64,000 bases of DNA from an uncultured Actinomycetes bacterium (GTDB lineage Bacteria; Actinomycetota; Thermoleophilia; Solirubrobacterales; 70-9). Where the stretch lies: positions 213,141 through 277,140 of the forward strand of contig CAVREA010000004.1 in NCBI GenBank assembly GCA_963720015.1, in the 5' to 3' direction. Shown piece after piece: positions 1 to 16,146 of the stretch. A model generated the notes under the pieces. That model had not been told where the DNA came from, searched no databases, and was given only the letters and a program-made list of their open reading frames with translations. The translations under genes were made by a program, and so were the position numbers. Position 1 is the first letter of the stretch; each line of letters begins with the position of its first letter.

Positions 1-936
1 ACTTCCAGCGCGGCGCGGTGAGCGCCGCCTTCCGCTGGGTCCCCGCGGAGATCCCCACCCTCGAGTCGCTGCACCTGCCGTCGATCCTGCTCGACATGAC
101 CCGCAAGCCGCGCGGGTTCATCCTCGTCACCGGCCCGACGGGCTCGGGCAAGTCGACGACCCTGGCGGCGATGATCGACGCGATCAACCAGGAGCGCGAG
201 GACCACATCCTCACGATCGAGGACCCGATCGAGTTCCTCCACAAGCCACAAGAGCTCGATCGTCAACCAGCGCGAGGTCGGCTCCGACGCCCCGGACTTC
301 GCCCTCGGCCTGAAGGCGGCCCTGCGCCAGGATCCCGACGTCATCCTCGTCGGCGAGATGAGGGACCTGGAGACGATCTCGACCGCGCTGACGGCGGCCG
401 AGACGGGGCACCTCGTGTTCGCCACCCTGCACACCCAGTCCACCGCGCAGACGGTTGACCGCATCATCGACGTCTTCCCCCCGCAGCAGCAGGGTCAGGT
501 CAGGACGCAGCTCTCGATCGCGCTCCAGGGCATCGTCACCCAGCAGCTTCTTCCCACCGCCGATGGCTCGGGCCGGGTCGTTGCCACCGAGGTGCTGGTG
601 CCGACACCGGCGATCCGCAACCTGATCCGCGAGGCGAAGACGCACCAGATCTACTCCGCGGTCCAGACCTCGGGCTCGGTCGGGATGCAGACGATGGACG
701 CCGACCTGGCGCGCCTCGTCCGCGAGGGGCGGATCACCCGCCAGCTCGCCGAGCAGCGGGCGTCGGTGCCGGAGGAGCTGCGCCGCTTGATGGGCGGGGA
801 GATGCCGCGCCCGGCCGAGCTCGCCGGCCAGGCAAACGGCTCGTCCAACGGCCACCCGGCCGGCTCGGCCTCGCGCCCGGCCGCCGCCTCGGTCCCGGCG
901 CCCAGCGCGCCGCCTCCGCAGGCTCACCAGGGGTAG
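1..936 (+). pseudogene. pilT: Type IV pilus retraction ATPase PilT. The 5' end runs off the window and there is one apparent 1-nt insertion near 246.
   Basis: Frame 0 from nt 3 reads [23 protein letters not shown]...[22 protein letters not shown] (Walker A)...[10 protein letters not shown]. The frame then changes near 246. Frame 1 continues [17 protein letters not shown]...[16 protein letters not shown]...[12 protein letters not shown] (ORF 358..936). This is colinear with PilT family proteins. Confidence 0.85.
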
Positions 937-945
937 GGAGCGGAG

Positions 946-2187
946 ATGGCGGCCAACACTTACGCCTTCAACGCCGTCGACCTCGCGGGCGTCGCCGCCA
1001 AGGGCGAGGTCGAGGCCGAGTCGAAGGCGCAGGTCACCGAGCAGCTCCGCCAGCGCGGGCTGATCGTCCTCGACGTCAACGAGAAGAAGGGGTCGGTCAA
1101 CCTCGAGGAGCTCTTCCAGCGCCTCCAGGGGATCTCGATGCGCGAGCTGGCGATCTTCTCGCGGCAGTTCGCAACCCTGGTCGCCTCGGGGATGCCGATG
1201 CTGCGCTCCCTGCACTCGCTCGAGGCCCAGACCGAGGACCAGCAGATCAAGGAGGCCGTCTACGCGGTCCGCCAGGACGTCGAGGCCGGCAGCTCGCTCG
1301 AGCACGCGATGGAGAAGCACCCGAAGGTTTTCGACCGCCTCTTCCGCTCGATGGTCCGCTCCGGCGAGCAGTCCGGGCGCCTCGAGGAGGCGCTCGACCG
1401 GGTCGCCTTCCATCTCGAGAAGATGGACGCCCTCCGCCGCCAGGTGCGCTCGGCGCTGATGTACCCGTCCTTCGTCTTCGCCGTCGCCCTGATCGTGATG
1501 ATGGTCGTCGTCGCCTTCATCGTCCCCGTCTTCGTCGGCATCTTCCTCGAGCTCGCCGCGGAGAACCCCGAGGAGAGCGTCACGCTGCCGCTGCCGACCA
1601 AGATCACGATGGGCGCCTCGGACGCGATCACCGGCCGCTGGTACATCCTCTTCCCGGCCCTGGGCGGCCTCGCCTTCGCCTTCCTCAAGTGGAAGAAGAC
1701 GGTCGGCGGCCGCGCCCGCTGGGACCGCTTCAAGCTGCACATCCCGTTCAAGATCGGCGACGTGATCCAGAAGATCGCCCTCGCCCGCTGGTCGCGCACC
1801 TTCTCCGGCTCGGTCTCCTCGGGCGTGCCGATGCTGCAGTCGATCCAGATCACCGGCGAGACCTCTGGCAACGTCGTCGTCGAGGAGGCGATGGGCGAGA
1901 TCTACGAGTCCGTCAAGCGGGGCGGCTCGATCGCCGCCCCGATCGAGGCCCACTCGATCTTCCCGCCGATGGTCGGCCACATGGTCGCCGTCGGCGAGGA
2001 GACGGGGCAGCTCGAGAACATGCTCTCCAAGATCGCCGACTTCTACGAGGCCGAGGTCGACGCCAAGGTCAAGGCGCTCACCTCGCTGATCGAGCCGCTG
2101 ATGATCTGCTTCGTCGGCGGCGTCGTCGGCTTCATCGTCATCTCGATGTACCTGCCGATCTTCGAGCTCTACGACAAGATCCGCTAG
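946..2187 (+). CDS. pilC: Type IV pilus platform protein PilC (GspF family), 413 aa
   Basis: The ORF is intact. It has the duplicated GspF-type architecture with hydrophobic segments (LMYPSFVFAVALIVMMVVVAFIVPVF, LIEPLMICFVGGVVGFIVISMYLPIF) and sits between pilT and pilA. Confidence 0.9.
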   Translation: MAANTYAFNAVDLAGVAAKGEVEAESKAQVTEQLRQRGLIVLDVNEKKGSVNLEELFQRLQGISMRELAIFSRQFATLVASGMPMLRSLHSLEAQTEDQQIKEAVYAVRQDVEAGSSLEHAMEKHPKVFDRLFRSMVRSGEQSGRLEEALDRVAFHLEKMDALRRQVRSALMYPSFVFAVALIVMMVVVAFIVPVFVGIFLELAAENPEESVTLPLPTKITMGASDAITGRWYILFPALGGLAFAFLKWKKTVGGRARWDRFKLHIPFKIGDVIQKIALARWSRTFSGSVSSGVPMLQSIQITGETSGNVVVEEAMGEIYESVKRGGSIAAPIEAHSIFPPMVGHMVAVGEETGQLENMLSKIADFYEAEVDAKVKALTSLIEPLMICFVGGVVGFIVISMYLPIFELYDKIR

Positions 2188-2475
2188 CCCGCCCGACCTT
2201 CGATCCGCCGCGGGAGGCGATCAGGCACGCGCGAGCAAGAGGTGCCACTCGTTGCGAGGGCTGTACCTCCCGTCCGCGCGGCGGTGGGGAGCCAGCGCTT
2301 CGACGATCGCCTCTCGTAGTCAGGACCGAGCCGCGGCGGGTTGACCCGTTATTGCGGCGGGGTGCCTGCCGGACCCTCGGTCCACCCAAAATTCGACCCA
2401 CGTTGCAGCACTAGTGACGATCCAGTTCAGGCGTGGGAAGCCGATAACCCCAGCGTGTGGAAATTGCCAGTGCCA

Positions 2476-2555
2476 CGGTGTCAAAGGCAAATCCGTCGCG
2501 AGGCGGAGACGCAAAGCAAACGGAGCTCGTTCGCGAGCTGGCCGGGCTACCACCG
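2476..2555 (+). promoter_or_regulatory. Candidate c-di-GMP-I (GEMM-I) class riboswitch aptamer in the pilA leader
   Basis: Elements read directly:
- P1: CGGUG (2476-2480) pairs with CACCG (2551-2555).
- Junction: UCAAAGGCAAA.
- P2: UCCGUC-GCGA-GGCGGA (2492-2507), a 6-bp stem with a GNRA loop.
- GACGCAAAGC (2508-2517).
- P3: CGG-AGCUCG-UUCG-CGAGCU-GG-CCG (2521-2544).
- GGCUAC before the P1 3' strand.
The block GGCAAA + 6-bp stem + GNRA + 6 nt + GACGCAAAGC has the same lengths and near-identical conserved bases as my recollection of V. cholerae Vc2 (GGCAAACCAUUCGAAAGAGUGGGACGCAAAGCC). GCCGGGCUACC resembles the conserved 3' junction. It lies 68 nt upstream of the pilA ATG in a locally lower-GC, 430-nt non-coding gap. 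Confidence 0.6.
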
Positions 2556-2623
2556 AGGTATTCATTCACCAAGTGGCTTCACGCGGGGCCCTGGCGCAAT
2601 CGATAGGCACCTAGGAGGTTCCT

Positions 2624-3094
2624 ATGCTGCAGAAGATGCGTGAGCGCCTCGGCGCCCGCCTCCGTAACGAGGAGTCCGGCTTCACTCTGGTCGAGCTCCT
2701 GGTCGTCATGCTGATCCTCGGCATCCTCGCCGCGATCGCCATCCCGTCCTTCTTCAACCAGAGGGACAAGGCCGGTGACGCAGAGGCCAAGGCCGGCGCG
2801 AAGACCGCTCAGACCGCGATGGAGACGTACGCGACTGAGAACAACGGCAACTACACCGGCGCTGACGTCGCCGCCCTGGTCGCAATTGAGCCGACCCTGG
2901 GTGGGCTGGGAGCCGATCTCACGGTTTCCGGTGTCGCCGCCAACACCTACACGGTGAGCGTCAACTCGAGCACCCTGAACGATTTCAACATCGCCCGGGG
3001 CGCCGGCGGAGCGCTGACCTACACCTGCACGGTCGATGCCTCCAACGGCACCAACCGTGGTGGCTGCCCCACCGGCGGCAACTGGGACAACTAA
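2624..3094 (+). CDS. pilA: Type IV major pilin (prepilin with N-terminal methylation motif), 156 aa
   Basis: The leader is followed by G/FTLVELLVVMLILGILAAIAIPSF, the class III signal peptide with conserved E5. AGGAGG sits 6-11 nt upstream of the ATG. A strong hairpin follows the stop. Confidence 0.9.
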   Translation: MLQKMRERLGARLRNEESGFTLVELLVVMLILGILAAIAIPSFFNQRDKAGDAEAKAGAKTAQTAMETYATENNGNYTGADVAALVAIEPTLGGLGADLTVSGVAANTYTVSVNSSTLNDFNIARGAGGALTYTCTVDASNGTNRGGCPTGGNWDN

Positions 3095-3126
3095 CCCGGT
3101 CCACCGGTAGCAGCTGACGCACTGAG

Positions 3127-3160
3127 AGGGGCGGGCCCGCAACATGGCCCGCCCCTTGTG
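3127..3160 (+). terminator. Intrinsic-terminator-like hairpin after pilA
   Basis: AGGGGCGGGCC (3127-3137) pairs perfectly with GGCCCGCCCCU (3146-3156) across an 8-nt loop, and is followed by UGUG. It could act as an attenuator separating the highly expressed pilin from downstream genes. The U-tract is weak. Confidence 0.55.
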
Positions 3161-3220
3161 CGTCGAGGCTGCCCGCCGTCAAGCCTGAGCCTGCCCCGCC
3201 GATAACAACCTGACCAGCGC

Positions 3221-6196
3221 ATGAACATGAACCAGATCAAGAGCATTCTCAGCCGGGCCTTTCCCTGCGCGCTCGTAGCCGCGGCTTTCCTCGCGCCGCT
3301 GGCAAGCAGCGCCGCGGCGGCGCCTGCCTCCTTCCTGGCCGTGTCCGACGACGGCAGCCGGGCGCTCTTCTCGACCAGTGAGGCCCTGGTCCCCGGCGAC
3401 ACCGACTTCCGCATCGACGTCTACGAGCGCGCCGGCGGGATCACCCGCCTGCTCTCGACCGGGCCGACCGGCGGCAACAGCGCCTTCGACGCGACCTTCG
3501 GCGGCGCCTCCAACGACGGCCTGCGGGTCTTCTTCACGACCAGCGAGCGCCTCGTGCCCGGCGACACCGACAACGCGCGCGACGTGTACCTGCGTACGGG
3601 CGGCGCGACGACGCTGATCTCGACCGGCCCTGCAGGCGGCAACGGCGACGCCGACGCGGACATCACTGGGATCACCGACGACGGGACGCTCGCGTACTAC
3701 GTCACCAACGAGCAGCTCACCAGCGCCGACCAGGACACCTCCTTCGACATCTACTCCCGCTCGGACACGGCCACCGAGCTGATCTCGACCGGGCCCGGGG
3801 TCGGCAACGGCCCTCACACCGCGGTCTTCAACGGCGCCTCCGCCGACGGCTCGGAGGTCGTGTTCACGACCAGCGAGCAGATGGACGTCGCCGACACCGA
3901 CCTGCGCCCCGACATCTACATGCGCACCGCCGGCACGACCTCGCTCGTCTCGATCGGCCCGAACGGCGGCAACGGCGCCATCGACCCGATCTTCTTCGAC
4001 ATCAGCACCGATGGCACGAAGGTGTTCTTCGAGACCAACGAATCGCTCGTCACCGCCGACACGGACAGCGCCGCAGACGTGTACGAGCGCGACGGAAGCA
4101 CCACCGCCCTCGTCTCGGCCGGCGGGGTCGCCTCCAACGCCGCCAACTACGCCGGCTCCTCCGCCGACGGGTCCCGCGTGTTCTTCGAGACCGACGAGTC
4201 CCTCAGCGGCGTTGACGTCGACTCGGTCTCCGACGTCTACGAGCGGTTCTCGGGGACGACCACGCTGATCTCGACCGGACCCTCCGACGGGCCGGGCGCG
4301 TTCCCCGCCTTCTTCCGGGCGGCATCCACCGACGGGACCCGGGTGATCTTCAGCACCGCCAAGGCCCTGACCGCGGCCGACGTCGACTCCTTCGCCGACG
4401 TCTACGAGACCTCCGGCGGGACGACCACCCTGATCTCGGCGGGCACGGCCGGGCTCCCGGCGTTCTTCAGCCAGGCCTCCGCCGACGGGTCGAGTGTCTT
4501 CTTCCTCACCCAGGAGGAGCTCTCCGGCTCCGACACCGACTCGCAGGCCGACGTCTACCGGGTCAACGGCGGCACCACGCTGCTGATCTCTACGGGCCCG
4601 GGCGTGACCGGCGGCAACGGCCCCTTCGACCCGCAGCTCACGGGTATCTCCGCCGACGGCTCGAAGGCCTTCCTGCAGACCCAGGAGCGCCTCACCACCG
4701 ACGACCTCGAGAACGAGGAGGACATCTTCGAGCGCAGCGGCTCGACGACGGTGCTGGTCTCGATCGGCAACTCCGCCCCCCTCGGACCCGGGGTCCCGGT
4801 GCTGACCGGCTCCTCGCCCGCCTCGCCCGCCAACGCCAACTCGCCGCTGATCGTCGGGCAGTCGGACCCCGGGACGACGCTGAAGCTCTACTCGTCGGCG
4901 AACTGCACGGGCGCGCCGGTCGCCACGGGCACCGCGGCCGAGCTCGCCTCGCCGGGCATCCAGGTGACCGTCGCCGACGACTCGAGCACCACCTTCAGGG
5001 CGCAGGCGACCGACTCCCTCGGTGACACCTCGACCTGCTCGTCGACCTCGGTCACCTACGTCGAGGACTCCCTGGCACCAGGCCCCCCGGACCTGACGGC
5101 GACCGACCCCGGCTCCCCCGCCAACGACAACACGCCGCTGGTCAAGGGTGACGCGGAGGCCGGCTCGGCGGTCGCCCTCTACACCACGGACGACTGCTCG
5201 GGAGCGGCCGCTGCCACCGGCTCCGCCGCCGCCTTCGCCTCACCCGGGATCCAGGTGACCGTCGCGGACGAGTCGACCACCGTCTTCCGCGCCCGCGCCA
5301 CCGACGCCGCGGGCAACGTCTCGGCCTGCTCCTCCGGCTCGATCTCCTACCAGGAGGTCTCGAGCGCGCCGGCCGCTCCTGCGCTCGCGGCGTTCGGCGC
5401 CGCCTCGCCCGCCAACCAGAACAGCGTGCACGTGAAGGGCACCGCCCCGGCGGGCTCCACGGTCGAGATCTTCAAGGGCCCGTGCACGGGGGCCCCGGCG
5501 GCCACCGGCACCGCGGCGGAGCTCGCCGGAGCCGGGATCGTCGTCTCGGTCGTCAACGACTCGACCACGACCTTCCGCGCCACCGCGACCCGTTTCGGCG
5601 TCGAGTCGCCCTGTTCGAACGGGGTGACCTTCGTCGAGGACTCGACCAGGCCCGGGACGCCGCGCCTCGACGTGCCGTCCGCGCCCCGGAACGACAACTC
5701 GCTGCGGATCGAGGGCACGGCCGAGGTCAACTCGACGGTGAAGCTCTACCGGCAGGCCTCCTGCGGCGGAGCGCCGGCGCTCGTCGCCGCCGCCGCCGAG
5801 CTCGGCTCCGGCATCGTCATCCAGGTCCCGGACAACTCGGTCACGACCCTCTACGCGCTCGCCGTCGACCGGGCTGGAAATAACTCGGCCTGCTCCTCTG
5901 AGCCGGCCGTCTACACCGAGGACTCGGCGGCGCCCCGCACCCGGATCACCTTCGCGCCCGGGGTGAAGACGCGCGACCGCACGCCGACCTTCCGCTTCCG
6001 GGACGTCACCGGCAACGAGCACACCCGCTTCCTCTGCAAGCTCGACCGGCGGCCATTCCGCTCCTGCGGCACGCCGCTGCGGCTGCGGAAGCTGGGGCCG
6101 GGCAGGCACACCTTCCGGGTCAAGGCCGTCGACTACGCCGGCAACCGCGAGAAGCGGGCGAGCAAGCGCCGCTTCACGGTGGTCAGGACCCGATGA
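3221..6196 (+). CDS. Secreted repeat protein, 991 aa: Sec signal peptide, about 9 PD40/TolB-like beta-propeller repeats, 4 Ig-like repeats and a C-terminal related domain. Candidate pilus-associated adhesin.
   Basis: The N-terminus MNMNQIKSILSRAFPCALVAAAFLAPLASSAAAAP looks like a signal peptide. The stop overlaps the ATG of the next (minor pilin) gene as ATGA (6193-6196). It is a single intact 2.97-kb ORF with strong internal periodicity. Confidence 0.8.
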   Translation: MNMNQIKSILSRAFPCALVAAAFLAPLASSAAAAPASFLAVSDDGSRALFSTSEALVPGDTDFRIDVYERAGGITRLLSTGPTGGNSAFDATFGGASNDGLRVFFTTSERLVPGDTDNARDVYLRTGGATTLISTGPAGGNGDADADITGITDDGTLAYYVTNEQLTSADQDTSFDIYSRSDTATELISTGPGVGNGPHTAVFNGASADGSEVVFTTSEQMDVADTDLRPDIYMRTAGTTSLVSIGPNGGNGAIDPIFFDISTDGTKVFFETNESLVTADTDSAADVYERDGSTTALVSAGGVASNAANYAGSSADGSRVFFETDESLSGVDVDSVSDVYERFSGTTTLISTGPSDGPGAFPAFFRAASTDGTRVIFSTAKALTAADVDSFADVYETSGGTTTLISAGTAGLPAFFSQASADGSSVFFLTQEELSGSDTDSQADVYRVNGGTTLLISTGPGVTGGNGPFDPQLTGISADGSKAFLQTQERLTTDDLENEEDIFERSGSTTVLVSIGNSAPLGPGVPVLTGSSPASPANANSPLIVGQSDPGTTLKLYSSANCTGAPVATGTAAELASPGIQVTVADDSSTTFRAQATDSLGDTSTCSSTSVTYVEDSLAPGPPDLTATDPGSPANDNTPLVKGDAEAGSAVALYTTDDCSGAAAATGSAAAFASPGIQVTVADESTTVFRARATDAAGNVSACSSGSISYQEVSSAPAAPALAAFGAASPANQNSVHVKGTAPAGSTVEIFKGPCTGAPAATGTAAELAGAGIVVSVVNDSTTTFRATATRFGVESPCSNGVTFVEDSTRPGTPRLDVPSAPRNDNSLRIEGTAEVNSTVKLYRQASCGGAPALVAAAAELGSGIVIQVPDNSVTTLYALAVDRAGNNSACSSEPAVYTEDSAAPRTRITFAPGVKTRDRTPTFRFRDVTGNEHTRFLCKLDRRPFRSCGTPLRLRKLGPGRHTFRVKAVDYAGNREKRASKRRFTVVRTR
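3332..4780 (+). repeat. About 9 tandem ~50-aa coding repeats (S.DGS.V.F.T.E.L...D.D...D.Y.R..G.TTLIS.GP.GGNG)
   Basis: The repeat cores are SDDGSRALF, SNDGLRVFF, TDDGTLAYY, SADGSEVVF, STDGTKVFF, SADGSRVFF, STDGTRVIF, SADGSSVFF and SADGSKAFL. Each is followed by DTD...DVYER..G.TTLISTGP. This pattern is typical of PD40/WD40-like beta-propeller blades. Confidence 0.7.
4790..5930 (+). repeat. 4 tandem ~90-aa Ig-like coding repeats
   Basis: The recurring unit is SPAN.N.P...G.A..GS.V.LY....C.G.P.ATG.AAE....GI.V.V.D.STT.FRA.A.D..GN.S.CSS..V.Y.ED. A fifth, diverged unit follows (5930-6190: TPTFRF...FLCKLD...C...GRHTFRVKAVDYAGN). Confidence 0.7.
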
Positions 6197-6751
6197 CCCG
6201 CCGGGCAGACCTCGAGCAGGGCTTCACCCTGATCGAGCTGATCGTCGCGATGGCGATGCTGATGGCGGTTCTCTCGATCGCCGTTCCCCTGATGACCACG
6301 GCGATGCGCAGCGAGCCGGAGCTGCGGGAGAAGTCGGCGAACGTGCAGACCGCGCGCGTGGTGCTCGACCGTCTCACCCGCGAGATCAGGGAGGGCGTCT
6401 CCGTCGTCAGCTCGACCCCGACGACCCTGGCCTACCGCACCTACACCCGCAGGTCCACCTGCGGCGGGACCGCGATCCTGCCCGCCGGCGCCCCCGCGAT
6501 GCTCTGCCGCGTTACCTACCAGTGCGCGGCCGGTACCTGCACCAGGACCGAGGCGAAGGAGGACGGAACCGGTCCGGGCCCCGCGGTGCAGTTCATCACC
6601 GGCCTGCAGAGCAACAGCATCTTCTCCTACACCCCCGCGGGGGACCCGACGTTTCATCGAGGTCTCACTCGTCCTGCCGAATCCCGACGGCACCGGGAAC
6701 CTGTCGATCGAGGACGGCGCCACCCTCCGCAACGCGACCCTCTCGAACTGA
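6193..6751 (+). pseudogene. Minor (pseudo)pilin with a prepilin-type N-terminus. There is an apparent +1 frameshift near 6652, or alternatively read-through fusion to the next pilin.
   Basis: The N-terminus is MTRRADLEQGFTLIELIVAMAMLMAVLSIAV. After ...YTPAGDPTF the alternative frame reads IEVSLVLPNPDGTGNLSIEDGATLRNATLSN and stops at TGA 6749-6751, which overlaps the ATG at 6751 (TGATG). The in-frame continuation is an Arg/Pro-rich stretch typical of out-of-frame translation. Confidence 0.65.
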
Positions 6752-8187
6752 TGAGGACCGCGCCCCGCAACGAGGACGGGTTCACGATCATCGAGGTGCT
6801 GGTCGCCGCGCTGATCATGGTCCTCGGCCTGCTCGCCACCTTCCAGGTCCTCAACGCCGCAACCACGAACGCGAGCCGCGCCAAGTCGGGTCAGGTCGCG
6901 ATCAACGTCGCCCAGCAGGAGATGGAGAAGCTCCGCGCCCTGACCTGGAGCCAGCTCGCCCTGACCGCGTCCCCGGGCTTCTCGAGCAACCCGAAGAACC
7001 CGCTCAACCGGGTCAACACCAGCGACGGGAGCTTCGCCCTGACGGCCGGCCCCAACGGCAACTGGGCGACGCTCGTCCGCAACGGCGGCTCCCTCAACGG
7101 CGGCGGCGTGATCAGCGGCGGAACGGTGGACCCTGGCCCCCAGTCGTTCACGTCCGGCGACGTCAGCGGCCGCATCTACCGCTTCATCGTCTGGCGGGAC
7201 GACCCCACCTGCCCGACCTCCTACTGCCAGGGCGTCCAGGACTACAAGCGGATCATCGTCGCGGTCAAGCTCAACGTCACCGGCCAGCTCAACTACGACC
7301 GCCGCTATGTCGAGATCACCTCCGACTTCATCGATCCCAACGACAGCCCCGTCACCGAGCCGACGCCGGGGGCGAACGGGGTCGTCACCGGCCAGCAGTT
7401 CTTCCTCTCGGACTCGCCCTGCGCGGCGAGCGGCAGCACCGTTCGCCAGGACATCACCGGCGAGCACCTGCTCCACAACACCCTCGGCACCTGCGCCAGC
7501 GGCCCGCAGACGGGGGTCACCCCGGGCGCGCCCGACGCGCTGATCACGGGCTATCCGCCCGACCCGGAGCCCGCGAACAACCTCGTCCCGCTCAGCTACG
7601 ACTACTCCAACGACTTCTACCTCGAGCCGACCCCCGACTACGACAAGGGCGTGCAGATCCGCCGCCAGGACACGAGCGGCTGCAGCTACACGCCGACCGG
7701 GTCGAACCCGGAGTCGATGATCCACCGCTGGGTCACGGATCCGATGCCCGCCTCCTTCACGATGACGGGCTCGACGACGCTCGAGTTCTACACCCGCACG
7801 ATCAACAGCAGCTCGCACACCGGCAGGATGTGCGCCTACCTCTTCACCCGGTCCGAATCCGGGACGCCGCCGGTGGCGACCGACGCGAGGTTCATGAATA
7901 TAGGCGTGGGATCGATCGGCTTCGGGCAGCCCTACTTCGGCTACCAGCCCGGCGGCAGCAACCTCTGGCCTGGCACCTGCACAGGGGTCGTCGTCAACGG
8001 CTGGACGCGGTGCAGGCTGGCGATGAGCCTCCCGCCGACCACGATCCCCGTCGGCCGGCGGCTCGGCGTCGCGATCAGCGTCGACCGCGCCCTGACCCCC
8101 GCGGACGCCCTGCCCTTCCTCTACGACCATCCGGAGTACCCGAGCCGGCTCGAGGTCGACACGACGACGCCCCTGGACATGGGGTAG
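6751..8187 (+). CDS. Large minor pilin, ~478 aa: prepilin N-terminus plus a ~440-aa C-terminal domain
   Basis: A second class III signal lies inside ORF 6193..8187: MRTAPRNEDGFTIIEVLVAALIMVLGLLATF. A large globular region with several Cys follows. Confidence 0.75.
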   Translation: MRTAPRNEDGFTIIEVLVAALIMVLGLLATFQVLNAATTNASRAKSGQVAINVAQQEMEKLRALTWSQLALTASPGFSSNPKNPLNRVNTSDGSFALTAGPNGNWATLVRNGGSLNGGGVISGGTVDPGPQSFTSGDVSGRIYRFIVWRDDPTCPTSYCQGVQDYKRIIVAVKLNVTGQLNYDRRYVEITSDFIDPNDSPVTEPTPGANGVVTGQQFFLSDSPCAASGSTVRQDITGEHLLHNTLGTCASGPQTGVTPGAPDALITGYPPDPEPANNLVPLSYDYSNDFYLEPTPDYDKGVQIRRQDTSGCSYTPTGSNPESMIHRWVTDPMPASFTMTGSTTLEFYTRTINSSSHTGRMCAYLFTRSESGTPPVATDARFMNIGVGSIGFGQPYFGYQPGGSNLWPGTCTGVVVNGWTRCRLAMSLPPTTIPVGRRLGVAISVDRALTPADALPFLYDHPEYPSRLEVDTTTPLDMG

Positions 8188-8189
8188 CC

Positions 8190-8945
8190 ATGGGAGCCGC
8201 CGCACCGATCGCCTTTGCATGGGGGCTCGTGATGGGCTCGTTCATGACCGTCGTCGCCCACCGCGTCCCGCGCGGCGAGTCGATCGTCGGCCCCCGGTCG
8301 CGCTGCCCGCAGTGCGGCGCGACGATCGCCGCCTACGACAACGTGCCGGTGCTGTCCTGGCTGATGCTGCGGGGCCGGAGCCGCTGCTGCAGGACGCGGA
8401 TCTCGGCCCGGTATCCGCTCACGGAGCTCGCCCTCGGGCTGCTCTACGCGCTCACGGTCCTGGTGCTCTGGGACAACCCCGCGGAGGTCGCTCTCGGCCT
8501 CGTCTTCGTCTCGGTGCTCGTGGTCGTCACGGTCACCGATCTCGAGCGGCGGATCATCCCCAACGCGGTGCTGCTCTACGGGGCGGGGGCCGGTCTCGCG
8601 ATCATCGCCTTCACCGATCCGGCCCAGCTGCCCGAGCACGTCGCCGCCGGAATCGCCGCCGGCGCGCTGCTGCTGCTCGCCGCCCTTCTCTACCCGCGCG
8701 GCATGGGAATGGGCGACGTCAAGCTCGCCGCCGTGATGGGGCTCTTCCTCGGGCGGGCGGTCGGCCCCGCCCTGCTGATCGCGCTGCTGGCCGGGTCCGT
8801 CGTCGGGATCGGGATGATGATCCGGTACGGGGCGCAGGCGCGCAAGGCCGCGATCCCGTTCGGGCCGTTCCTGGCTCTCGGAGGGTTGGTCGGCATGCTC
8901 GCCGGCGGCGAGCTGGTCGATGCCTACCTCGACAGCTTTTCCTAG
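8190..8945 (+). CDS. pilD: Prepilin peptidase / N-methyltransferase PilD (A24 family), 251 aa
   Basis: The ATG at 8190 is 3 nt after the upstream stop. Motifs: CPQCGATIAAYDNVPVLSW (Zn-finger-like CxxC), VTDLERRIIPN and GMGMGDVKL (the two catalytic Asp motifs), and IPFGPFLALG. Confidence 0.9.
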   Translation: MGAAAPIAFAWGLVMGSFMTVVAHRVPRGESIVGPRSRCPQCGATIAAYDNVPVLSWLMLRGRSRCCRTRISARYPLTELALGLLYALTVLVLWDNPAEVALGLVFVSVLVVVTVTDLERRIIPNAVLLYGAGAGLAIIAFTDPAQLPEHVAAGIAAGALLLLAALLYPRGMGMGDVKLAAVMGLFLGRAVGPALLIALLAGSVVGIGMMIRYGAQARKAAIPFGPFLALGGLVGMLAGGELVDAYLDSFS

Positions 8946-9033
8946 TACTGAGTAACTCGCCGGGTCCTCACGGCTACAGCAATCGTCCACGGCGGCCGAT
9001 TGATGGTTAACCGCCGAGGGGGCGGCCAATCCA

Positions 9034-10137
9034 ATGCTCAGAAGCAGGAAGAACAACACCACGGTCGGGCTCCACATCGAGGCGGCCGCCATCACCGCCA
9101 CCGAGGTGCGCGGCAATGGCATCCCGCATGTCGAGGGAGCCGGCGTCGAGCCGCTCGAGCCCGGGGTCTTCGGTGACGGCGAGGTCTCCAACGAAGAGGC
9201 GCTCACCGACCACCTGAAGTCGCTCTTCGCCCGCCAGAAGCTGAGCCGCAAGGTGCGGATCGGAGTCGGCAACCAGCGGGTGATCGTGCGGGCGATGCGC
9301 CTCCCCGCGATCGAGGACCCGAAGGACCTTGCGGCAGCCGTCCGCTTCCGCGCCCAGGAGCAGATCCCGATGCCGCTCGACCAGGCGGTCCTCGACCACC
9401 AGGTCGTCGGCGGCGTCCCCGCCCGGGACGGCGAGCCGGCCCAGGTGGACGTCGCCGTGATCGCCGCCCGCCGGGACATGGTCGCGTCCTTCGTCGAGCC
9501 GGTCCGCAAGGCCGGCCTCGACCCGGTGGGAATCGATCTCTCCGCCTTCGGCATGATCCGCGCCCTGGCCGGCGCCCACGGCCTCGCTCCCGCGGGAGCG
9601 GCGCCGACCGCCCCCGGCGCCGACGGCCCCCCGGTCCCGGGCGCCTACACCGTTCTCTACTGCCATCTCGGCGACGTCACCAACCTCGCCGTCGCGCGCG
9701 GCGCGGGCTGTCACTTCGCCCGGGTCTCCTCCTTCGGCGCCGACGCGATCGCCGCGCAGCTCGCCGAAGCCGCGGAGCTGACGATGGAGCACGCTCGGCA
9801 GTGGTTCACCCACGTCGGTCTCGAAGTTCCGGTCGAGTCGGTCGAGGGAGATCCGAGGATCGTCAGCGCCACCCGCGATGCCCTGCAGCGGGGCGCGGCA
9901 GACCTCGCCAACGAGCTGCGGCTCTCGCTCGACTACTACGGCGCGCAGGAGGCCGTCTCCCCCGTCGACAAGGTCGTCCTCTGCGGTCCGCTGAGCGCGA
10001 TCGCCGGACTCCCCGGGGAGCTTGAGCGCAGCCTCGGCCTGCCGATCGAGGTCGCCAGGCCCGACGCGCTGGAGAAGTTCGGCGCGCCGACCGCCACCCA
10101 GCTGACCCTGTCCTACGGACTTGCCCTGCAGAGCTGA
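9034..10137 (+). CDS. pilM: Type IV pilus assembly ATPase-fold protein PilM, 367 aa
   Basis: The ORF is intact and has an actin-like fold signature (VGLHIEAAAITATEV..., RIGVGNQRVIVRAMRLP, PVGIDLSAFG). Its stop overlaps the pilN start (ATG at 10137). Confidence 0.85.
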   Translation: MLRSRKNNTTVGLHIEAAAITATEVRGNGIPHVEGAGVEPLEPGVFGDGEVSNEEALTDHLKSLFARQKLSRKVRIGVGNQRVIVRAMRLPAIEDPKDLAAAVRFRAQEQIPMPLDQAVLDHQVVGGVPARDGEPAQVDVAVIAARRDMVASFVEPVRKAGLDPVGIDLSAFGMIRALAGAHGLAPAGAAPTAPGADGPPVPGAYTVLYCHLGDVTNLAVARGAGCHFARVSSFGADAIAAQLAEAAELTMEHARQWFTHVGLEVPVESVEGDPRIVSATRDALQRGAADLANELRLSLDYYGAQEAVSPVDKVVLCGPLSAIAGLPGELERSLGLPIEVARPDALEKFGAPTATQLTLSYGLALQS

Positions 10138-10899
10138 TGCGTCCCGTCAACCTCATCCCACCGGATCTGCGCCGCGGCGTCCAGGCCCCCTCGCGCACCG
10201 GCCCCGTTGCCTACCTCGTCGTCGGCGGCCTCGCCCTCGTCCTCGCCGGCGTGACGCTGCTCGTGCTCTCGCAGAACCAGATCTCCGAGCGCGAGGCGGA
10301 CATCACCCGGCTCAAGCAGGAGCGGGCGGAGATCGGCTCGGGCAGAGCGCCTCGCCAGCTACACGCAGTTCAACACCGTCCGCGAACAGCGGGTCATGAC
10401 CGTGAGCAGCCTCGCCGACAGCCGCTTCGACTGGGAGCGCGTGATGGAGGAGTTCTCCCGCGTCCTGCCCTCCGACATCTGGCTCGTCAAGATGACCGGC
10501 AAGGTCCGACCGGAGGTCGACGTCGACGACAGCGCCCAGATCGCGCTGCGCGGCGGCGTCGCTGGACCCGCCCTCGAGCTGATCGGCTGCGCCCCCAGCT
10601 ACGAGTCGCTCGCCGGCTTCATCTCGTCGCTGCGCGACATCGACGGCGTCACCCGCGTCGGCGTGCTCAAGTCCGAGCGGCCGCCCCTCGCCTCCTCCTC
10701 CGACCTCGCGACCGGCGACGGCACCGACCAGGAGGACTGCCGGACCAGGGACTTCATCACCCGCTTCGAGCTCGTCGTCGCCTTCGACGCCGCGCCCGTT
10801 TCGGCGGCCACGACCCCCGGCGCCGTCCCCCCGCCCGCCCCGGCACCGGCACCGGCACCGGCCGAGCCCGCCGCAACCCCGACCTCGACCGAGGGCTGA
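10137..10899 (+). pseudogene. pilN: PilN-like fimbrial assembly protein; apparent frameshift near 10340
   Basis: MRPVNLIPPDLRR, then a TM segment (VAYLVVGGLALVLAGVTLLVL), then a coiled coil (EREADITRLKQERAEI). The frame then changes. The second frame continues AERLASYTQFNTVREQRVMTVSSLADSRFDWERVMEEFSRVLPSDIWL (ORF 10396..10899). The C-terminal tail is PAPAPAPA, encoded by a (CCGGCA)x3 repeat at 10840-10861. Confidence 0.75.
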
Positions 10900-10900
10900 G

Positions 10901-11703
10901 ATGAGCTCGAACCGGATACTCGCCTCAATGCTCGGCGTCGCAGCGATCCTCGCCGCCTTCTGGCTGCTGGCGCTGGCGCCGAAGCGCGATCAGGCCGCCA
11001 AGCTCGGCACCCAGGTCGAGAGCCTCCAGCAGGAGGTCGACCAGCTCAACGCCACCGTGGCCGCGGCCGACGAGGCGAGGCGCGACTTCGCCGACGACTA
11101 CGCGCAGCTGGTCACCCTCGGCAAGGCCGTCCCCGCCGACGACGACACCGCCTCGCTGCTGGTCCAGCTCAACAAGGTTGCGGGGCGCAACGGGCTCGAA
11201 TTCCGCGACATCGAGCTCCAGGACACCGGCGCGAGCGCGGGGGTGCCGGCGCCGACCACCGCGCCCGCCGCCCCGCCACCACCACCACCACCGACCCGGC
11301 CACCGGCGCGGTGCCCGCTGCGAGTCCAGTCCCGGCCACCGAGGCCGCCGCCGCCCTGATGCCGCTCGGCGCCACCATCGGCCCCGCTGGCCTGGCCGTG
11401 ATGCCCTACAAGCTCACCTTCGCGGGCAGCTTCTTCGATGTCTCCAAGTTCGTCGCCGGCGTCGACTCGCTGGTCAAGACCGAGACCGGGCGGGTGACGG
11501 TCGACGGGCGGCTGATGACCATCGACGGGTTCTCGCTGACCAGCGACCCGCGCACCGGCTTCCCCGCGCTGACCGCAAGCGTCTCGGTGACGACCTATGT
11601 GACCCCGCCCGGCCAGGGCGTCACGGTGGGCGCCACGCCCGCCGCCCCGGCTCCGGTCGGCGCGACCGCCACCCCGACCTCGACCACCACCCCGGCCCCA
11701 TGA
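10901..11703 (+). pseudogene. pilO: PilO-like pilus assembly protein; apparent frameshift near 11295, next to a poly-Pro (CCA/CCG) run
   Basis: The N-terminal TM segment (LGVAAILAAFWLLALAP) is followed by a coiled coil (LQQEVDQLNATVAAADEAR) and LLVQLNKVAGRNGLEF. After PPPPPPP the frame changes to DPATGAVPAASPVPATEAAAALMPLG...YKLTFAGSFFDVSKFVAGVDSLV (ORF 11311..11703). Confidence 0.7.
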
Positions 11704-12608
11704 GCAGGTTCAAGCGACCCCAGCTCAAGCGACCGGCGCTCAAGCGACCGGCGCTCAAGACGCCGCAACTGCATGCGCCGCAGGTCCTCAGCGACCTCTT
11801 CCAGGACTTGCGGGACCGGCACCTGCTGCCGCTGGTGGCAGTGCTGGCCGTGGCGATCGTCGCCGTTCCCTTCATCCTCGGCGGCTCCGACTCGGAGCCG
11901 ACGTCCGGCTCCGGCACGAGCACGGCTCCCGCGGCGGGCGCCTCGGCATCGGACGGCGCCTCCAAGCTGGTTGTGGTCGCCGCCAATCCCGGCCTGCGGG
12001 ACTACCGCCTGCGGCTGCGCGCGCTCGAGGCCAAGAACCCCTTCAGGCAGCACTTCACCGCTCCGCAGCTCTCCGGCTCCGAGCTGGGCGGCGGCGCGAC
12101 GACGACGGTGCCGACCGAGTCGACGAACGGCGGCGTGGCGTTCCCGGAGCCGTCGGTTCCCTCCTTCCCCGGCGGCACCGGCGGGAGCACCGGCGGAAAC
12201 GGCGGCGGCGGGACGGGCGGCGGCGGCCAGACCAAGGTCAAGGTCGAGACCGAGTACGTCCAGTACACAGTCGACGTGAAGGTCGTTCGCAGGGCCCAGG
12301 GCGGAAACACGCGCCAGCCTCGCGAGCGCATCCTCGAGGACGTGCCGGAGCTGACGATGCTGCCCGGCAAGAAGGCCCCGGTCGCCGTCTTCATGGGCGT
12401 CAGCGCCGACCGCGAGAAGGCCCTTCTGCTCGTCTCCGAGAACGTCACCTCGATCTTCGGCGACGTGCGCTGCATGGCCGGCTCGGAGAGCTGCCAGCTG
12501 ATCATGGTCGAGCCCGGGTTCCCGGTCACCTTCGTCTACGGGGAGAGGGACCGCGCTTACAGGCTGAACGTGCTGCGGATCGAGGAATCGGTCCGCAAGC
12601 AGCCCTGA
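11700..12608 (+). CDS. Unknown single-pass membrane protein ending the pilMNO operon, 302 aa, with a Gly-rich linker
   Basis: The ATG at 11700 overlaps the pilO stop (ATGA). The N-terminus has KRPxLK repeats, followed by a TM segment (LLPLVAVLAVAIVAVPFILGG), a GGTGGSTGGNGGGGTGGGG linker and a C-terminal beta-rich domain. I recognise no family. Confidence 0.6.
   Translation: MSRFKRPQLKRPALKRPALKTPQLHAPQVLSDLFQDLRDRHLLPLVAVLAVAIVAVPFILGGSDSEPTSGSGTSTAPAAGASASDGASKLVVVAANPGLRDYRLRLRALEAKNPFRQHFTAPQLSGSELGGGATTTVPTESTNGGVAFPEPSVPSFPGGTGGSTGGNGGGGTGGGGQTKVKVETEYVQYTVDVKVVRRAQGGNTRQPRERILEDVPELTMLPGKKAPVAVFMGVSADREKALLLVSENVTSIFGDVRCMAGSESCQLIMVEPGFPVTFVYGERDRAYRLNVLRIEESVRKQP
11709..11768 (+). 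repeat. Four tandem 15-nt units (consensus CTCAAGCGACCGGCG) encoding FKRPQ/LKRPA/LKRPA/LKTPQ
   Basis: Direct reading: ttcaagcgaccccag ctcaagcgaccggcg ctcaagcgaccggcg ctcaagacgccgcaa. The unit length is a multiple of 3, so copy-number change keeps the frame. Confidence 0.75.
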
Positions 12609-12640
12609 GGATCCCTGGCGGAGTGCGGATTTCCCAAGGC

Positions 12641-12669
12641 TTCAGTTTGTGAAGTCTTGGCGCTATACT
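12641..12669 (+). promoter_or_regulatory. Possible sigma-70-type promoter upstream of the hxlR-like gene
   Basis: TTCAGT (12641-12646), a 17-nt spacer, then TATACT (12664-12669), in a locally AT-richer gap. This is a motif match only. Confidence 0.25.
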
Positions 12670-12711
12670 CGCTGAAGCGAGGAGTGGGCCCAAGCGGGCC
12701 GCCCCGCCGTC

Positions 12712-13092
12712 ATGAGCGCAATCAGCAACGCCAGATGCCCCGTCTGCCGCACGGCGGACGTGATCTCCGGGAAGTGGACCCTTCTCGTCATCCGCGACCT
12801 CGCGGCGGGGAGCAGCCGATTTTGCGAGCTCGAGCGCTCACTCGAGGGCATCAGCCCGAGAACGCTCTCGCTGCGCCTGCGGGCGCTCGAGGAGGAGGGC
12901 ATCATCGAGCGCCATACCTTTCCCGAGGTCCCGCCCCGGGTCGAGTACGCCCTCACCGAGAAGGGCGAGGCCCTGGTGCCGCTGATCGAGGACATGCGGC
13001 GCTACGGCAAGCGCTGGCTCGCGGCCGACGGCGAGGTCGACGATTGCGCCCAGCCGCTCGGCGCCTCGGCCCGCGCCGGCCAGGCCGCCTAG
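12712..13092 (+). CDS. HxlR-family winged-helix transcriptional regulator, 126 aa
   Basis: CPVCRTADVISGKWTLLVIRDL...FCELERSLEGISPRTLSLRLRALEEEGIIERHTFPEVPPRVEYALTEKG is the canonical HxlR/DUF24 signature. Confidence 0.85.
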   Translation: MSAISNARCPVCRTADVISGKWTLLVIRDLAAGSSRFCELERSLEGISPRTLSLRLRALEEEGIIERHTFPEVPPRVEYALTEKGEALVPLIEDMRRYGKRWLAADGEVDDCAQPLGASARAGQAA

Positions 13093-13177
13093 CGGCAGCG
13101 GCCCTCGCGGGCGCTCATAACCTGCAACGCCTCGTGCAGCCGCAGGAGCCCCCCCGGCGCAGACGAAGCCTGGGAGC

Positions 13178-14962
13178 GTGCGTGACCCCGCCCTGACCGA
13201 AGCTCTGCGCAGGCTCGCCGCCGAGGCGGCGACCCGCTTCAGCTCGCTGGTCGCGAGCGGTGACGAGATCCCCTTCGACGTCGCCGAGGACGCGGGTCCG
13301 GATTCGCTCTTCTACCGCTACGTCCCGCTCACCGCCCGCTACGTCGCCGAGCGCGCCGACGAGGTCCGCTCGCTGCCGGCCTTCGAGCCCGCCCGCGACG
13401 CGGTGGCCGAGGCCGCGGTTGCCGCCCCTTATCTAGAGGCCAGGGGCCGCCCCGTGCCCGAGCACGAGGGCACGCGGGCCGAGGCGATGCTGCTGCTCTT
13501 CGTCGCCGCCCTCTGGGACGGCTCCACCGACTTCGCGCTCGACCGCCCCCGCCTCGGTCGGGCGCTCGACGCACTCGACGCCGAGACCCGAGATCTCGAG
13601 GAGACCGACATCCTGATCGTGCCGCTGGTCGGCCTGCGGATGTCGGCGCCGCGGATCAGCCTGCCGAGCGGCGTCCGAATCGTGGGCGCCGACAGCATCG
13701 AGGTCCCACTCGAAGCGATGCGCTCTGAGGGCATGAACCGGGAGCCGTGGGAGCCCCAGTTCCTGGCCGTCGCCGAGCAGGATGCCGAAGGCGAGGACCC
13801 GGTCGAGGCCCTCCGGCAGCTCCACGACCTGATCAGCGTCATGCGCCTGTTCAAGGAGGGCGCCATCGGCCTCGGGCCCCATGCCTTCGCGCCCACGGGC
13901 GAGGACAGCTGGCGCCGGATCGCAACCGGCGCTCCCCCGACCAGGCCCGGAAGCTACGAGCTGAGCGAGGCCGAGACGGCGGAGCTGGCCGAGTTCGCCG
14001 GCGACCTGGAGGCGTGTCCCGACCCCCGCGGCTCGCTGGCCTGGGCGATCGCCCGCTTCGAGATGGGCTGCGAGCGGGCCAGCGCGATCGAGGGCCTCTC
14101 CGATCACCTCCTCGCCCTGCAGGCCGTCCTCGAAGGCGAGGGGCCGGTCGGGGCGTCGCTGCCGATGCGGGCAGCGGCGCTGATCGCGGAGCCCGAGGAG
14201 CGCCCCCAGACCTCGCTTCGGTTCGAGCGCATCCAGCATCTCGAGCGCGCGCTGATCGCCGGCGCGCCCGTGGGGCCCGCCGGCCTCGATGCCGGGGCGG
14301 CAGCCGAGCACGCCGCTTGGCTCGAGGAGGGCCTGCGCGCAATCCTTCGCAACGCGGCCCTCGGCGAGCACGGCGCCGACCTCGGCGCCGCGGCGGACGA
14401 GACCCTGATCGCGGCGGGTCTGATCGCCGGCGAGGTGAGCGAGGAGCAGATGGGGTCCGCCGCCGAATGGGACGTCATCTCCGAGGCCGAGGGGAACGCA
14501 GATCGCGAGGAGGAGATCCGGGTGACGGACGAGCGAGACGAATTGCTCGAGCGCGAGGCCCGCGCCGGCAGCGGCGAGGAGATCAGGGTGACGGCCAAGC
14601 CCGCCGCCGAGCAGGAGTTCGACCGGGCGGTCGGCGCCTCGGCCCAGGAGGGGCTCGAAGCCGGGCCGCCGGAGGTCGACGAGGACTTGAGCGGGAAAGC
14701 GCACGACGACGGCAGTCGGGCCGATCCCGGCGACGACTACCAGGAGGGCACGATGATCGACCGTGACTGGCTCGGCGAGGTCGAGCGCGCCGACAGCGCC
14801 ACACTCGAATGGCCCGCGACCGCGATCGGCGAGCCGGCTCCCGGCGAGCGCGAGCGGATCGACACCCCGCGCGTCCGGCACCTGTTCCCGGTCCCCGAGG
14901 ATGCGGACTGGGAGGTTCGCGAACTCGACTACGACCGGCGCAGGACGGCCAACGGCCGCTGA
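13178..14962 (+). CDS. Hypothetical acidic protein, 594 aa; no recognisable domain
   Basis: A GTG start has GGGAG 2-6 nt upstream. It is a single intact 1.8-kb ORF. The C-terminal third is very acidic and carries a duplicated EEIRVT motif. Confidence 0.65.
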   Translation: MRDPALTEALRRLAAEAATRFSSLVASGDEIPFDVAEDAGPDSLFYRYVPLTARYVAERADEVRSLPAFEPARDAVAEAAVAAPYLEARGRPVPEHEGTRAEAMLLLFVAALWDGSTDFALDRPRLGRALDALDAETRDLEETDILIVPLVGLRMSAPRISLPSGVRIVGADSIEVPLEAMRSEGMNREPWEPQFLAVAEQDAEGEDPVEALRQLHDLISVMRLFKEGAIGLGPHAFAPTGEDSWRRIATGAPPTRPGSYELSEAETAELAEFAGDLEACPDPRGSLAWAIARFEMGCERASAIEGLSDHLLALQAVLEGEGPVGASLPMRAAALIAEPEERPQTSLRFERIQHLERALIAGAPVGPAGLDAGAAAEHAAWLEEGLRAILRNAALGEHGADLGAAADETLIAAGLIAGEVSEEQMGSAAEWDVISEAEGNADREEEIRVTDERDELLEREARAGSGEEIRVTAKPAAEQEFDRAVGASAQEGLEAGPPEVDEDLSGKAHDDGSRADPGDDYQEGTMIDRDWLGEVERADSATLEWPATAIGEPAPGERERIDTPRVRHLFPVPEDADWEVRELDYDRRRTANGR

Positions 14963-14978
14963 CCGCGCCCGCCGGCGC

Positions 14979-16127
14979 TCAGGCTCCGGCGGCGATCTCC
15001 TCCCGCTCCGGCTCGGTGGCGAACAGGTAGCGGTTGATCTGGGCTAGGCCGCCGAGGTCGTGGACGTCCTCGTCCAGGTAGGGGACTCGAATCACGGTCG
15101 CGGCCCCCAGCTCGGCCGAGAGCCGCTCTATGTTGCGGGCGTCGCGCTCCGCGAGGGCGCCGTAGTCGGCGAAGTTGGCCGCGACCCGCTCGGCCAGCTC
15201 GGCGTCCTCGAGCGCCGCGGTCAGCTCCTCCCGCAGGTCGCCACCGTCCCCGGGCAGCCGGTCGAACGCGTAGTGGACCTTGTTGACGATCACCCCGCCG
15301 AAGGGGAGGTCGGCCTCGATCAACTTGCGGTGGAAGTAGACGGCCTCCTCGATCGGCTCGCCCTGCGGGCCGCAGACGACGAGGAAGCAGGTGCCGGGGT
15401 CGGCGAGGAGGGCGTTGACCCGCCTCGCCCGCTCCTGAAAACCGTCCACCATGCCGCTCATCGCGGTGAAGAACTCCGAGAGGTCCGCGAGCAGGTCGAA
15501 TCCGACGATCCGCTTCAGGACCGAGAGGACGACCGAGGCCCCGCGGCCGGCGACCCGCGCCGCCATCCCGGTCGGCTTCATGAACACGCGCAGCGAGCGG
15601 CCCTCGATGAACTGCATCAGGCGGCGCGGGGCGTCGAGGAAGTCGAGCGCGTTGCGGGTCGGCGGAGTGTCGAGGACGAGCAGGTCGAAGCGCCCCCCGG
15701 AATGGATCTCGAACAGCTTCTCCATCGCCATGTACTCCTGCGATCCCGCCAGCGCATTCGAGATCTGCTGGTAGATGCGGTTGCCGAGGATGCGGTCGCG
15801 GCTCTGCGCGTCCTCGGCGTAGCGGCTGACGACCTCGTCGAAGGTCGCCTTCGGATCGAGCATCATCGCCCACAGCTCGCCGCTCATCCGAATGCCCGTC
15901 GCCTCGAACAGGGCCGGATCGACACGGCGGGCCTCGTTGCCGAGCTGCTCGAGGCCGAGGGCGTCGGCGAGCCGCTTCGCCGGGTCGATGGTGACCACGC
16001 AGACCTTCAGCCCCTTCGCCGCCATACCGGTGGCGACCGCCGCGGCGGTCGTCGTCTTGCCGACTCCGCCCGATCCGGCGCAGACGCAGACGCCCTTGCC
16101 GGCGAGGACCTCGTCGATCGCGGTCAC
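14979..16127 (-). CDS. ArsA/Get3-family ATPase, 382 aa (BagB/Rv3680-like)
   Basis: It has a deviant Walker A (CAGSGGVGKTTTAAAVA) and TIDPAKRLADALGL. It is the second gene of a same-strand pair. Confidence 0.85.
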   Translation of the reverse strand: MTAIDEVLAGKGVCVCAGSGGVGKTTTAAAVATGMAAKGLKVCVVTIDPAKRLADALGLEQLGNEARRVDPALFEATGIRMSGELWAMMLDPKATFDEVVSRYAEDAQSRDRILGNRIYQQISNALAGSQEYMAMEKLFEIHSGGRFDLLVLDTPPTRNALDFLDAPRRLMQFIEGRSLRVFMKPTGMAARVAGRGASVVLSVLKRIVGFDLLADLSEFFTAMSGMVDGFQERARRVNALLADPGTCFLVVCGPQGEPIEEAVYFHRKLIEADLPFGGVIVNKVHYAFDRLPGDGGDLREELTAALEDAELAERVAANFADYGALAERDARNIERLSAELGAATVIRVPYLDEDVHDLGGLAQINRYLFATEPEREEIAAGA

Positions 16128-16146
16128 GGGGCCTTCCGCATCCGGC

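Follow-up and report, generated by a model that had tools for sequence, protein, structure and literature searches.

A propeller-Ig gene in a type IV pilus cluster

A 64,000-nt stretch of contig CAVREA010000004.1 (assembly GCA_963720015.1, positions 213,141 to 277,140 of the forward strand; called the window here) was analysed. The best protein matches of the window came from metagenome-assembled genomes of Solirubrobacterales (Thermoleophilia, Actinomycetota), and its G+C content is ~71%. A type IV pilus cluster occupies window positions 1-12608, and all cluster genes and signals given below lie on the + strand. Between the major prepilin gene pilA and two minor-pilin genes of this cluster lies an intact 991-aa open reading frame (ORF; 3221-6196), which begins with the first ATG that follows a stop codon, has a third-position G+C content of 95%, and encodes a beta-propeller followed by immunoglobulin-like (Ig) domains. 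An earlier reading made from the sequence alone (the sequence-only reading) had singled out this propeller-Ig gene as a candidate pilus-associated adhesin or anchor. Our analysis identifies it as an accessory gene of the type IV pilus system in Solirubrobacterales that is conserved without being universal.

The cluster opens with a partial pilT, frameshifted near 255, and with pilC (946-2187), which together span 1-2187 and match T2SSE and T2SSF. The major prepilin PilA (2624-3094; 156 aa) gave an N_methyl match of 36 bits as well as PilA, GspG and ComGC N-terminal matches, and a strong Shine-Dalgarno sequence (AGGAGG) precedes its gene. Downstream of the propeller-Ig gene, minor pilin 1 (6193-6751; ~185 aa in relatives) has N_methyl and ComGF matches and a GspJ-type N-terminus, and minor pilin 2 (6751-8187) is an acidic 478-aa protein with an N_methyl match and a large globular part that belongs to no Pfam family. 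They are followed by the prepilin peptidase gene pilD (8190-8945; A24_N_bact 111 bits, Peptidase_A24 63 bits), pilM (9034-10137), pilN (10137-10899, with a 2-nt deletion near 10333), pilO (10901-11703, with a frameshift at ~11260-11305), and a conserved gene of unknown function at the end of the operon (~11706-12608). The same order, pilB-pilT-pilC-...-pilA-propeller-Ig gene-minor pilin 1-minor pilin 2-pilD-pilMNO-unknown gene, was found in related loci. The last gene, which nearly all related loci share, encodes a ~300-aa product that matched no Pfam family: its N-terminus is basic, and it contains a single hydrophobic segment, a linker rich in Gly and Ser, and a conserved domain at the C-terminus. 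The recognisable cluster genes of the window and ~100 related loci, a subset of which was scanned with Pfam, included no secretin.

The N-terminus of the propeller-Ig protein carries a putative Sec-type signal peptide (~residues 1-33; 3221-3319), with a basic n-region (K/R), a hydrophobic core and an AxA then AP pattern that is kept in 12 orthologues. R12, A31, A33, P35 and A36 are invariant in the orthologues. The call was made by eye and from conservation rather than with a predictor, and the cleavage site is a presumed one. In the AlphaFold2 (AF2) model a helix of residues 4-27 is followed by a low-confidence linker. The window copy shows neither a lipobox nor a Tat motif, and its C-terminal sequence has no visible LPXTG or transmembrane anchor. 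A class III signal (G-F-T-L-I-E) is absent and no N_methyl match was obtained; PilA and both minor pilins have one. These features bear out the proposal of a protein with a predicted Sec signal that is not itself a pilin.

Residues 35-520 (3323-4780) form a nine-bladed, PD40-like beta-propeller. Nine repeats of ~55 aa, anchored at D66, 121, 176, 231, 286, 338, 393, 444 and 501, follow the pattern S-x-DG ... VFF-x-T ... D-x-D-x-x-x-D-[VI]-[YF] ... T-x-L-[VI]-S, and the DxDxxxD-[VI]-[YF] motif is found in every blade. In alignments of 48 and 94 homologues the Asp triads were the most invariant columns, being invariant or nearly so. AF2 runs using the homologue alignments gave a full-length model with a predicted local distance difference test score (pLDDT) of 87.2, and a model of the propeller alone with a pLDDT of 92.9, a predicted template-modelling score of 0.91 and 36 strands, that is, nine four-stranded blades. 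The repeats and the model thus agree with the roughly nine blades counted in the sequence-only reading. The nine Asp triads may bind Ca2+.

Full-length Foldseek searches gave low template-modelling (TM) scores because the domains are flexibly linked, and the propeller-only model was therefore made. The top 50 matches of this model were nearly all S9-family/prolyl oligopeptidases, Trilobed protease and TolB, with sortilin as the one outlier. The best of them reached E values of 6e-11 to 1e-8 with TM-scores of 0.26-0.46, the highest for the ten-bladed sortilin; the low scores can be attributed to the presence of nine blades against six or seven in PD40 propellers. In the Pfam scan of the propeller-Ig protein (E<=0.1) only Big_13, Big_6 and CHB_HEX_C_1 were matched. 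Pfam PD40 (PF07676) was not significant on the protein itself; it scored 32.8 bits on the homologue P0018 (cut-off 20.9) and 19.8 bits on the protein of locus L009. The label PD40-like is thus fair yet indirect, coming from a paralogue that passes the PD40 cut-off and from the Foldseek matches. A family-profile search of the Protein Data Bank sequences returned no match at E<=1, and the modelled closed ring of nine blades with an Asp triad in each appears to have no close counterpart among solved structures.

Four tandem Ig-like modules follow (residues 526-900; 4796-5920). They match NCBIfam NF047446 (OmpL47-type; 54.1 bits, cut-off 40), form an internal repeat at 47% identity, and carry one Cys pair each (562/606, 659/703, 755/798 and 848/891); Big_13 (25.9 bits, cut-off 27) and Big_6 (24.3 bits, cut-off 27.6) fell slightly under their cut-offs. 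A fifth, different Ig-like domain (residues 905-991; 5933-6193) has an isoelectric point (pI) of ~12, a net charge of +19 and its own Cys pair (939/949). The four to five Cys-paired modules noted from the sequence are therefore four plus one of another kind. In the orthologue alignment the Cys pairs were invariant wherever their module exists. Modules Ig-2 to Ig-4 are missing from all but 3-5 of 51 orthologues, and the usual length is ~800 aa. Judged by this alignment, the 991-aa window form is an expanded variant whose four-Ig stalk is atypical. The C-terminal domain, together with blade 1, is the best-conserved part: in all 51 orthologues the last 85 residues have a pI of 11-12 and a net charge of +11 to +25, against a pI of 4.1 for the body. 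Typical net charges are ~+17 for the C-terminal domain, ~-19 for minor pilin 2 and ~-11 for PilA; the charge of minor pilin 1 ranges from neutral to basic.

Orthology and linkage to pilus genes

The association between the gene and the pilus was followed from both sides, and co-occurrence with pilus genes, on which the sequence-only reading had beforehand staked its proposal, was strong from each. On the protein side, 80 loci were picked by similarity to the propeller-Ig protein, with one genome per species. Between pilA and minor pilin 1 sit ~48 proteins that are matched as far as the C-terminal domain; ~30 relatives that match in the propeller only are encoded at a distance from pilus genes. 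On the pilus side, metagenome contigs were found independently through minor pilin 2, and 64 loci had enough upstream DNA to be informative. The propeller-Ig gene lies directly upstream of minor pilin 1 in 58 of them.

A neighbour-joining tree was built from 78 propeller domains, 49 pilus-linked (of 51 extracted) and 29 from non-pilus loci. All 49 pilus-linked propellers fell into one clade and all 29 non-pilus paralogues, including those of L009 and L005, fell outside it. Members of the clade share 42-50% identity across the order, and every one of the 49 sampled remains in the cluster, even in the one lineage where the gene has been relocated to between pilC and pilA. The dN/dS ratio of the gene, 0.19-0.26, indicates purifying selection. 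The orthologous group covers ~50 lineages at species level as well as numerous Solirubrobacterales metagenome contigs; the wider family has >2,500 detectable homologues, JGI gives relatives the name 'Tol biopolymer transport system component', and no paralogue lies within the 64-kb window. We consider it likely that the gene belongs functionally, in some way, to the pilus system.

The L009 protein was considered as an orthologue that had moved out of a pilus cluster and was rejected, since its propeller groups with the paralogues in the tree. Among the paralogues, ~30 loci within L020-L087 (e.g. L025, L042 and L050) encode, away from pili, a nine-blade propeller joined to a different acidic, Cys-containing C-terminal domain, which ends in a conserved ...T(Q)GIFVP at the very C-terminus. 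One further locus, L040, holds a second, divergent type IV pilus cluster (2800-16550) with two pilA genes, a PilX-like gene and genes resembling minor pilins 1 and 2 at 27-30% identity; a 976-aa propeller paralogue is encoded there between the minor pilins and pilC.

Predicted transcription signals around pilA and the propeller-Ig gene

The sequence-only reading had placed the gene in the pilin operon and taken it to be translationally coupled there. The overlap with minor pilin 1 held: the stop codon (TGA, 6194-6196) and the minor-pilin start (ATG, 6193-6195) overlap in an ATGA at 6193-6196, and in orthologues the gap between the two genes is approximately -12 to +30 nt. Embedding in the pilA transcript did not hold. 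The 126 nt between pilA and the propeller-Ig gene contain a strong hairpin and a promoter-like motif, and the tight joining is only to the downstream minor pilin.

The hairpin, found by folding and by comparison across loci, is a GC-rich terminator or attenuator candidate after pilA (3110-3172; core stem 3126-3157). The stretch 3095-3220 has a minimum free energy of -59.8 kcal/mol (z -3.55), and a GGGGCGGGCC-loop-GGCCCGCCCC hairpin recurs after pilA in those orthologous loci where the spacer from pilA to the gene was correctly delimited. Its short T tract kept it from being called in a consensus terminator scan. It probably serves as a terminator or attenuator dividing the abundant pilA message from the minor-pilin unit.

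Downstream of the hairpin, a promoter of the WhiG/sigma-28 type is predicted at 3179-3205, with a -35 element TCAA (3179-3182), a 15-nt spacer and a -10 element GCCGATAA (3198-3205). The orthologous loci carry CTAA(A/G)-N16-GCCGATA right before the propeller-Ig start in 51 of 52 cases. These motifs fit the WhiG/sigma-28 consensus, T(A/C)AA-N16-GCCGATAA, reported from inside type IV pilus clusters in Rubrobacter and Actinoplanes (PMC12871210, PMC8325347). WhiG control of type IV pilus clusters has been documented in the sister class Rubrobacteria (PMC8325347). Our locus resembles those clusters in having the motif inside the pilus cluster and differs from them in its propeller protein, since the literature searched on them mentions none. 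In the orthologous loci the start codon mostly lies 7 nt past the 8-mer and lacks a Shine-Dalgarno sequence, a spacing from which a leaderless mRNA geometry may be inferred; in the window the leader would be ~8 nt. The conserved hairpin and promoter together make the propeller-Ig gene the likely first gene of a minor-pilin/assembly unit.

A second -10 element of the sigma-28/WhiG type, GCCGATAA (2440-2447), was found 184 nt upstream of the pilA ATG, with a weak -35 (TCCA). It matches the WhiG2 -10 consensus (PMC12871210). GCCGATAV has only two matches in the window, one before pilA and one before the propeller-Ig gene. The pilA leader also contains a candidate c-di-GMP-I-GGC riboswitch aptamer (2477-2555; Rfam RF03167, 53.9 bits against a gathering score of 59, E 1e-11, model positions 1-80). 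Elements of the same kind lie upstream of pilA in L002 (7268-7345), L008 (9236-9316) and L013 (9106-9186), at 58-59 bits and again below the gathering score. The predicted regulatory logic, drawn from motifs and folding, would place pilA behind a c-di-GMP-type riboswitch and end its message at the terminator; a WhiG promoter would then drive the propeller-Ig gene, the minor pilins and the assembly genes.

Proposed role and alternatives

Non-pilin partners such as PilY1 set what a pilus sticks to and the timing of its extension, and they have been described mainly for Proteobacteria (PMC4471445). The actinobacterial pilus literature that we searched mentions no non-pilin pilus partner. We propose that the propeller-Ig protein is a non-pilin accessory protein that is made with the minor pilins, rides their initiation complex and displays its propeller at the pilus tip, where it would serve as an adhesive head, and we give this proposal a probability of about 45%. 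In outline, the protein would be Sec-exported after synthesis from the first gene of a WhiG-type, mostly leaderless unit behind the pilA terminator. It would join the minor-pilin initiation complex and would end up at the pilus tip, or stay at the base until extension. Binding would fall to the acidic nine-bladed propeller as the head, with the Ig modules serving as a spacer and contact with an acidic pilus or minor-pilin surface made by the basic C-terminal Ig domain. On this proposal, the protein would be a functional, convergent analogue of PilY1/PilC and of PilX2 of the saccharibacterium TM7x.

Linkage seen from both sides, monophyly, dN/dS, promoter conservation, charge polarity and the variable number of Ig modules were the reasons for placing the protein at the tip as an adhesin. 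A variable Ig number is typical of adhesin stalks. Non-pilin propeller proteins that act with minor pilins are already known in PilY1 (PMC4471445, PMC7541494) and in TM7x PilX2 (PMC11623550).

The place of the gene does match that of PilY1/PilC genes in diderms, as the sequence-only reading held, and the architecture does differ: the sequence and fold features that define the PilY1/PilC family (PF05567) are not those of this protein. Like PilY1/PilC, it appears to be a Sec-exported non-pilin (its signal being a predicted one) that contains a beta-propeller and is encoded with minor pilins, and it has conserved acidic motifs that could bind Ca2+, where PilY1 has an EF-hand-like site (PMC4471445). 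Unlike PilY1, whose propeller is C-terminal and of a modified seven-bladed form, it has an N-terminal, nine-bladed, PD40-like propeller, and an Ig stalk with a basic terminal Ig stands in place of the variable N-terminal adhesin domain. The host also differs, being actinobacterial and assumed to have a single membrane, and the propeller-Ig gene is dispensable in some lineages. Membership in the PilY1 family was rejected: PF05567 was not matched in the Pfam scan, and PilY1 was absent from the top 50 Foldseek matches of both models.

PilX2, of the T4P-2 system of TM7x, is likewise a propeller protein encoded with pilus genes in a non-proteobacterial host, and it too is without a canonical PilD signal. 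Host binding requires PilX2 but filament extrusion does not (PMC11623550), which fits the dispensability of the propeller-Ig gene. PilX2 differs in its pilin-like N-terminus and its C-terminal seven-bladed RCC1-type propeller, and homology is not expected. The blade type is shared with the PD40 propellers of TolB and of the N-terminal domains of S9 peptidases and prolyl oligopeptidases, from which the protein is set apart by having nine blades instead of six or seven, by DxDxxxD in each, and by lacking a peptidase or TolB N-terminal domain. A propeller head on an Ig-like stalk also recalls the integrin alpha ectodomain, and tandem Ig modules of varying number recall bacterial Ig-repeat adhesins (SiiE, Big_13/Big_6). 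The likeness to integrins is one of design only (TM <=0.17).

Several observations weigh against the tip-adhesin proposal. Every module of the protein is of a generic kind, and homology to PilY1 is absent. Six of the 64 operons lack the gene and run from pilA straight to minor pilin 1 (L090, L142, L147, L151, L154 and L163). These six keep the hairpin and the WhiG-type promoter, with minor pilin 1 as the leaderless first gene; since promoter and minor pilins remain, the propeller-Ig gene is not needed to build the machine. A basic terminal Ig domain is also present in non-pilus paralogues, namely that of L009 and those encoded by two adjacent genes of L005. When the C-terminal domain (96 aa; 5906-6193) was used as the query of an exhaustive HMMER search, its fold proved to be a generic Ig repeat of giant surface proteins, with 16,566 representative proteins at E<=0.001; these giants carry up to 44 tandem copies, and the domain here is one unusually basic terminal copy. 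Charge compensation between the C-terminal domain and minor pilin 1, minor pilin 2 or PilA was not supported across 42 loci, and the correlation with minor pilin 2 had the wrong sign (rho +0.39). In the window itself, pilT, minor pilin 1, pilN and pilO are frameshifted.

Part of this evidence bears on a different placement of the protein, which we hold to be possible but on the unlikely side: a wall-retained surface protein beside the pilus, with its basic C-terminal Ig on anionic wall polymers or the membrane surface, its Ig stalk spanning the wall, and its propeller serving either as a surface adhesin or as a collar or guide for the pilus on its way through the peptidoglycan. The host envelope is taken to be single-membrane (monoderm), as in Actinomycetota generally. 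The uniformly basic end of an otherwise acidic protein would suit such retention, and its recurrence in the L009 and L005 paralogues is what a general retention module would give; with no LPXTG or transmembrane anchor seen, some other mechanism of retention is needed if the protein is cell-bound. The cluster shows no secretin among its recognisable genes, and PD40 propellers such as TolB are envelope scaffolds. However, the tight, ancient linkage is specifically to minor pilin 1 rather than to pilMNO, the six operons that do without the gene argue against an essential conduit, and the profile scans of the protein detected no known wall-binding domain.

Could the gene instead be a passenger, that is, an adhesin from the large propeller family of Solirubrobacterales which, under the shared WhiG promoter, is co-regulated with the pilus genes for surface attachment without interacting with the pilus? 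The size of the family, the ~30 propeller-only relatives away from pili (in loci chosen by similarity), the six operons lacking the gene and the generic nature of all domains would agree with this. It is nevertheless improbable, because the pilus-linked proteins form one old clade, 49 of 49 in the cluster even after rearrangement inside it, and because the gene always stands immediately before minor pilin 1 whenever it follows pilA.

Release through the pilus as a soluble secreted factor would account for the Sec-type signal, the lack of a visible anchor and the adjoining minor-pilin genes. The comparable cases would be TcpF of Vibrio cholerae and CofJ of enterotoxigenic E. coli, whose genes belong to type IVb pilus operons and whose binding partner is the minor pilin at the tip. 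Such a release is improbable, as a Sec-exported protein of a single-membrane cell without an outer membrane needs no pilus piston and a propeller on an Ig stalk of variable repeat number is typical of surface adhesins.

In its fuller form, the tip-adhesin proposal holds that soil Solirubrobacterales tip their retractile pili with an independently arisen non-pilin adhesin, a probably Ca2+-loaded, PD40-like nine-bladed propeller carried on an Ig stalk, which would be produced with the minor pilins from the leaderless message of a WhiG promoter under c-di-GMP control. We put this picture forward tentatively. If true, it would give a Gram-positive phylum a convergent PilY1 counterpart, of which none has been described in the literature searched. 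The parts of the protein are of known kinds. The combination of propeller and Ig modules, the nine-bladed ring with Asp triads, and the conserved position as first gene of a minor-pilin operon in an actinobacterium were undescribed in the same literature. The orthologous group is clearly bounded, and its order, Solirubrobacterales, is found commonly in soil metagenomes. With a confident AF2 model and a predicted scheme of regulation, surface attachment of type IV pili in Actinomycetota becomes a testable question.

Compared with relatives of 82-97% identity, the frameshifts of the window copy are indels of 1-2 nt. A single nucleotide inserted near 6651 joins minor pilin 1 in frame to minor pilin 2 (a 664-aa ORF). 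The propeller-Ig gene, pilA, pilC, minor pilin 2, pilD and pilM are intact. Genes for FtsZ, RF1, PrmC and a ParA-like protein at other places in the window are intact too. The four frameshifts may be local assembly indel errors, or the pilus machine may be decaying or inactive in this genome. Farther along the window, the gamma-glutamyltranspeptidase ORF (20011-20310 versus 20024-21466) has a Pfam match only from profile position 74, and the codon-position GC signal changes frame near 20290, which may mark another frameshift.

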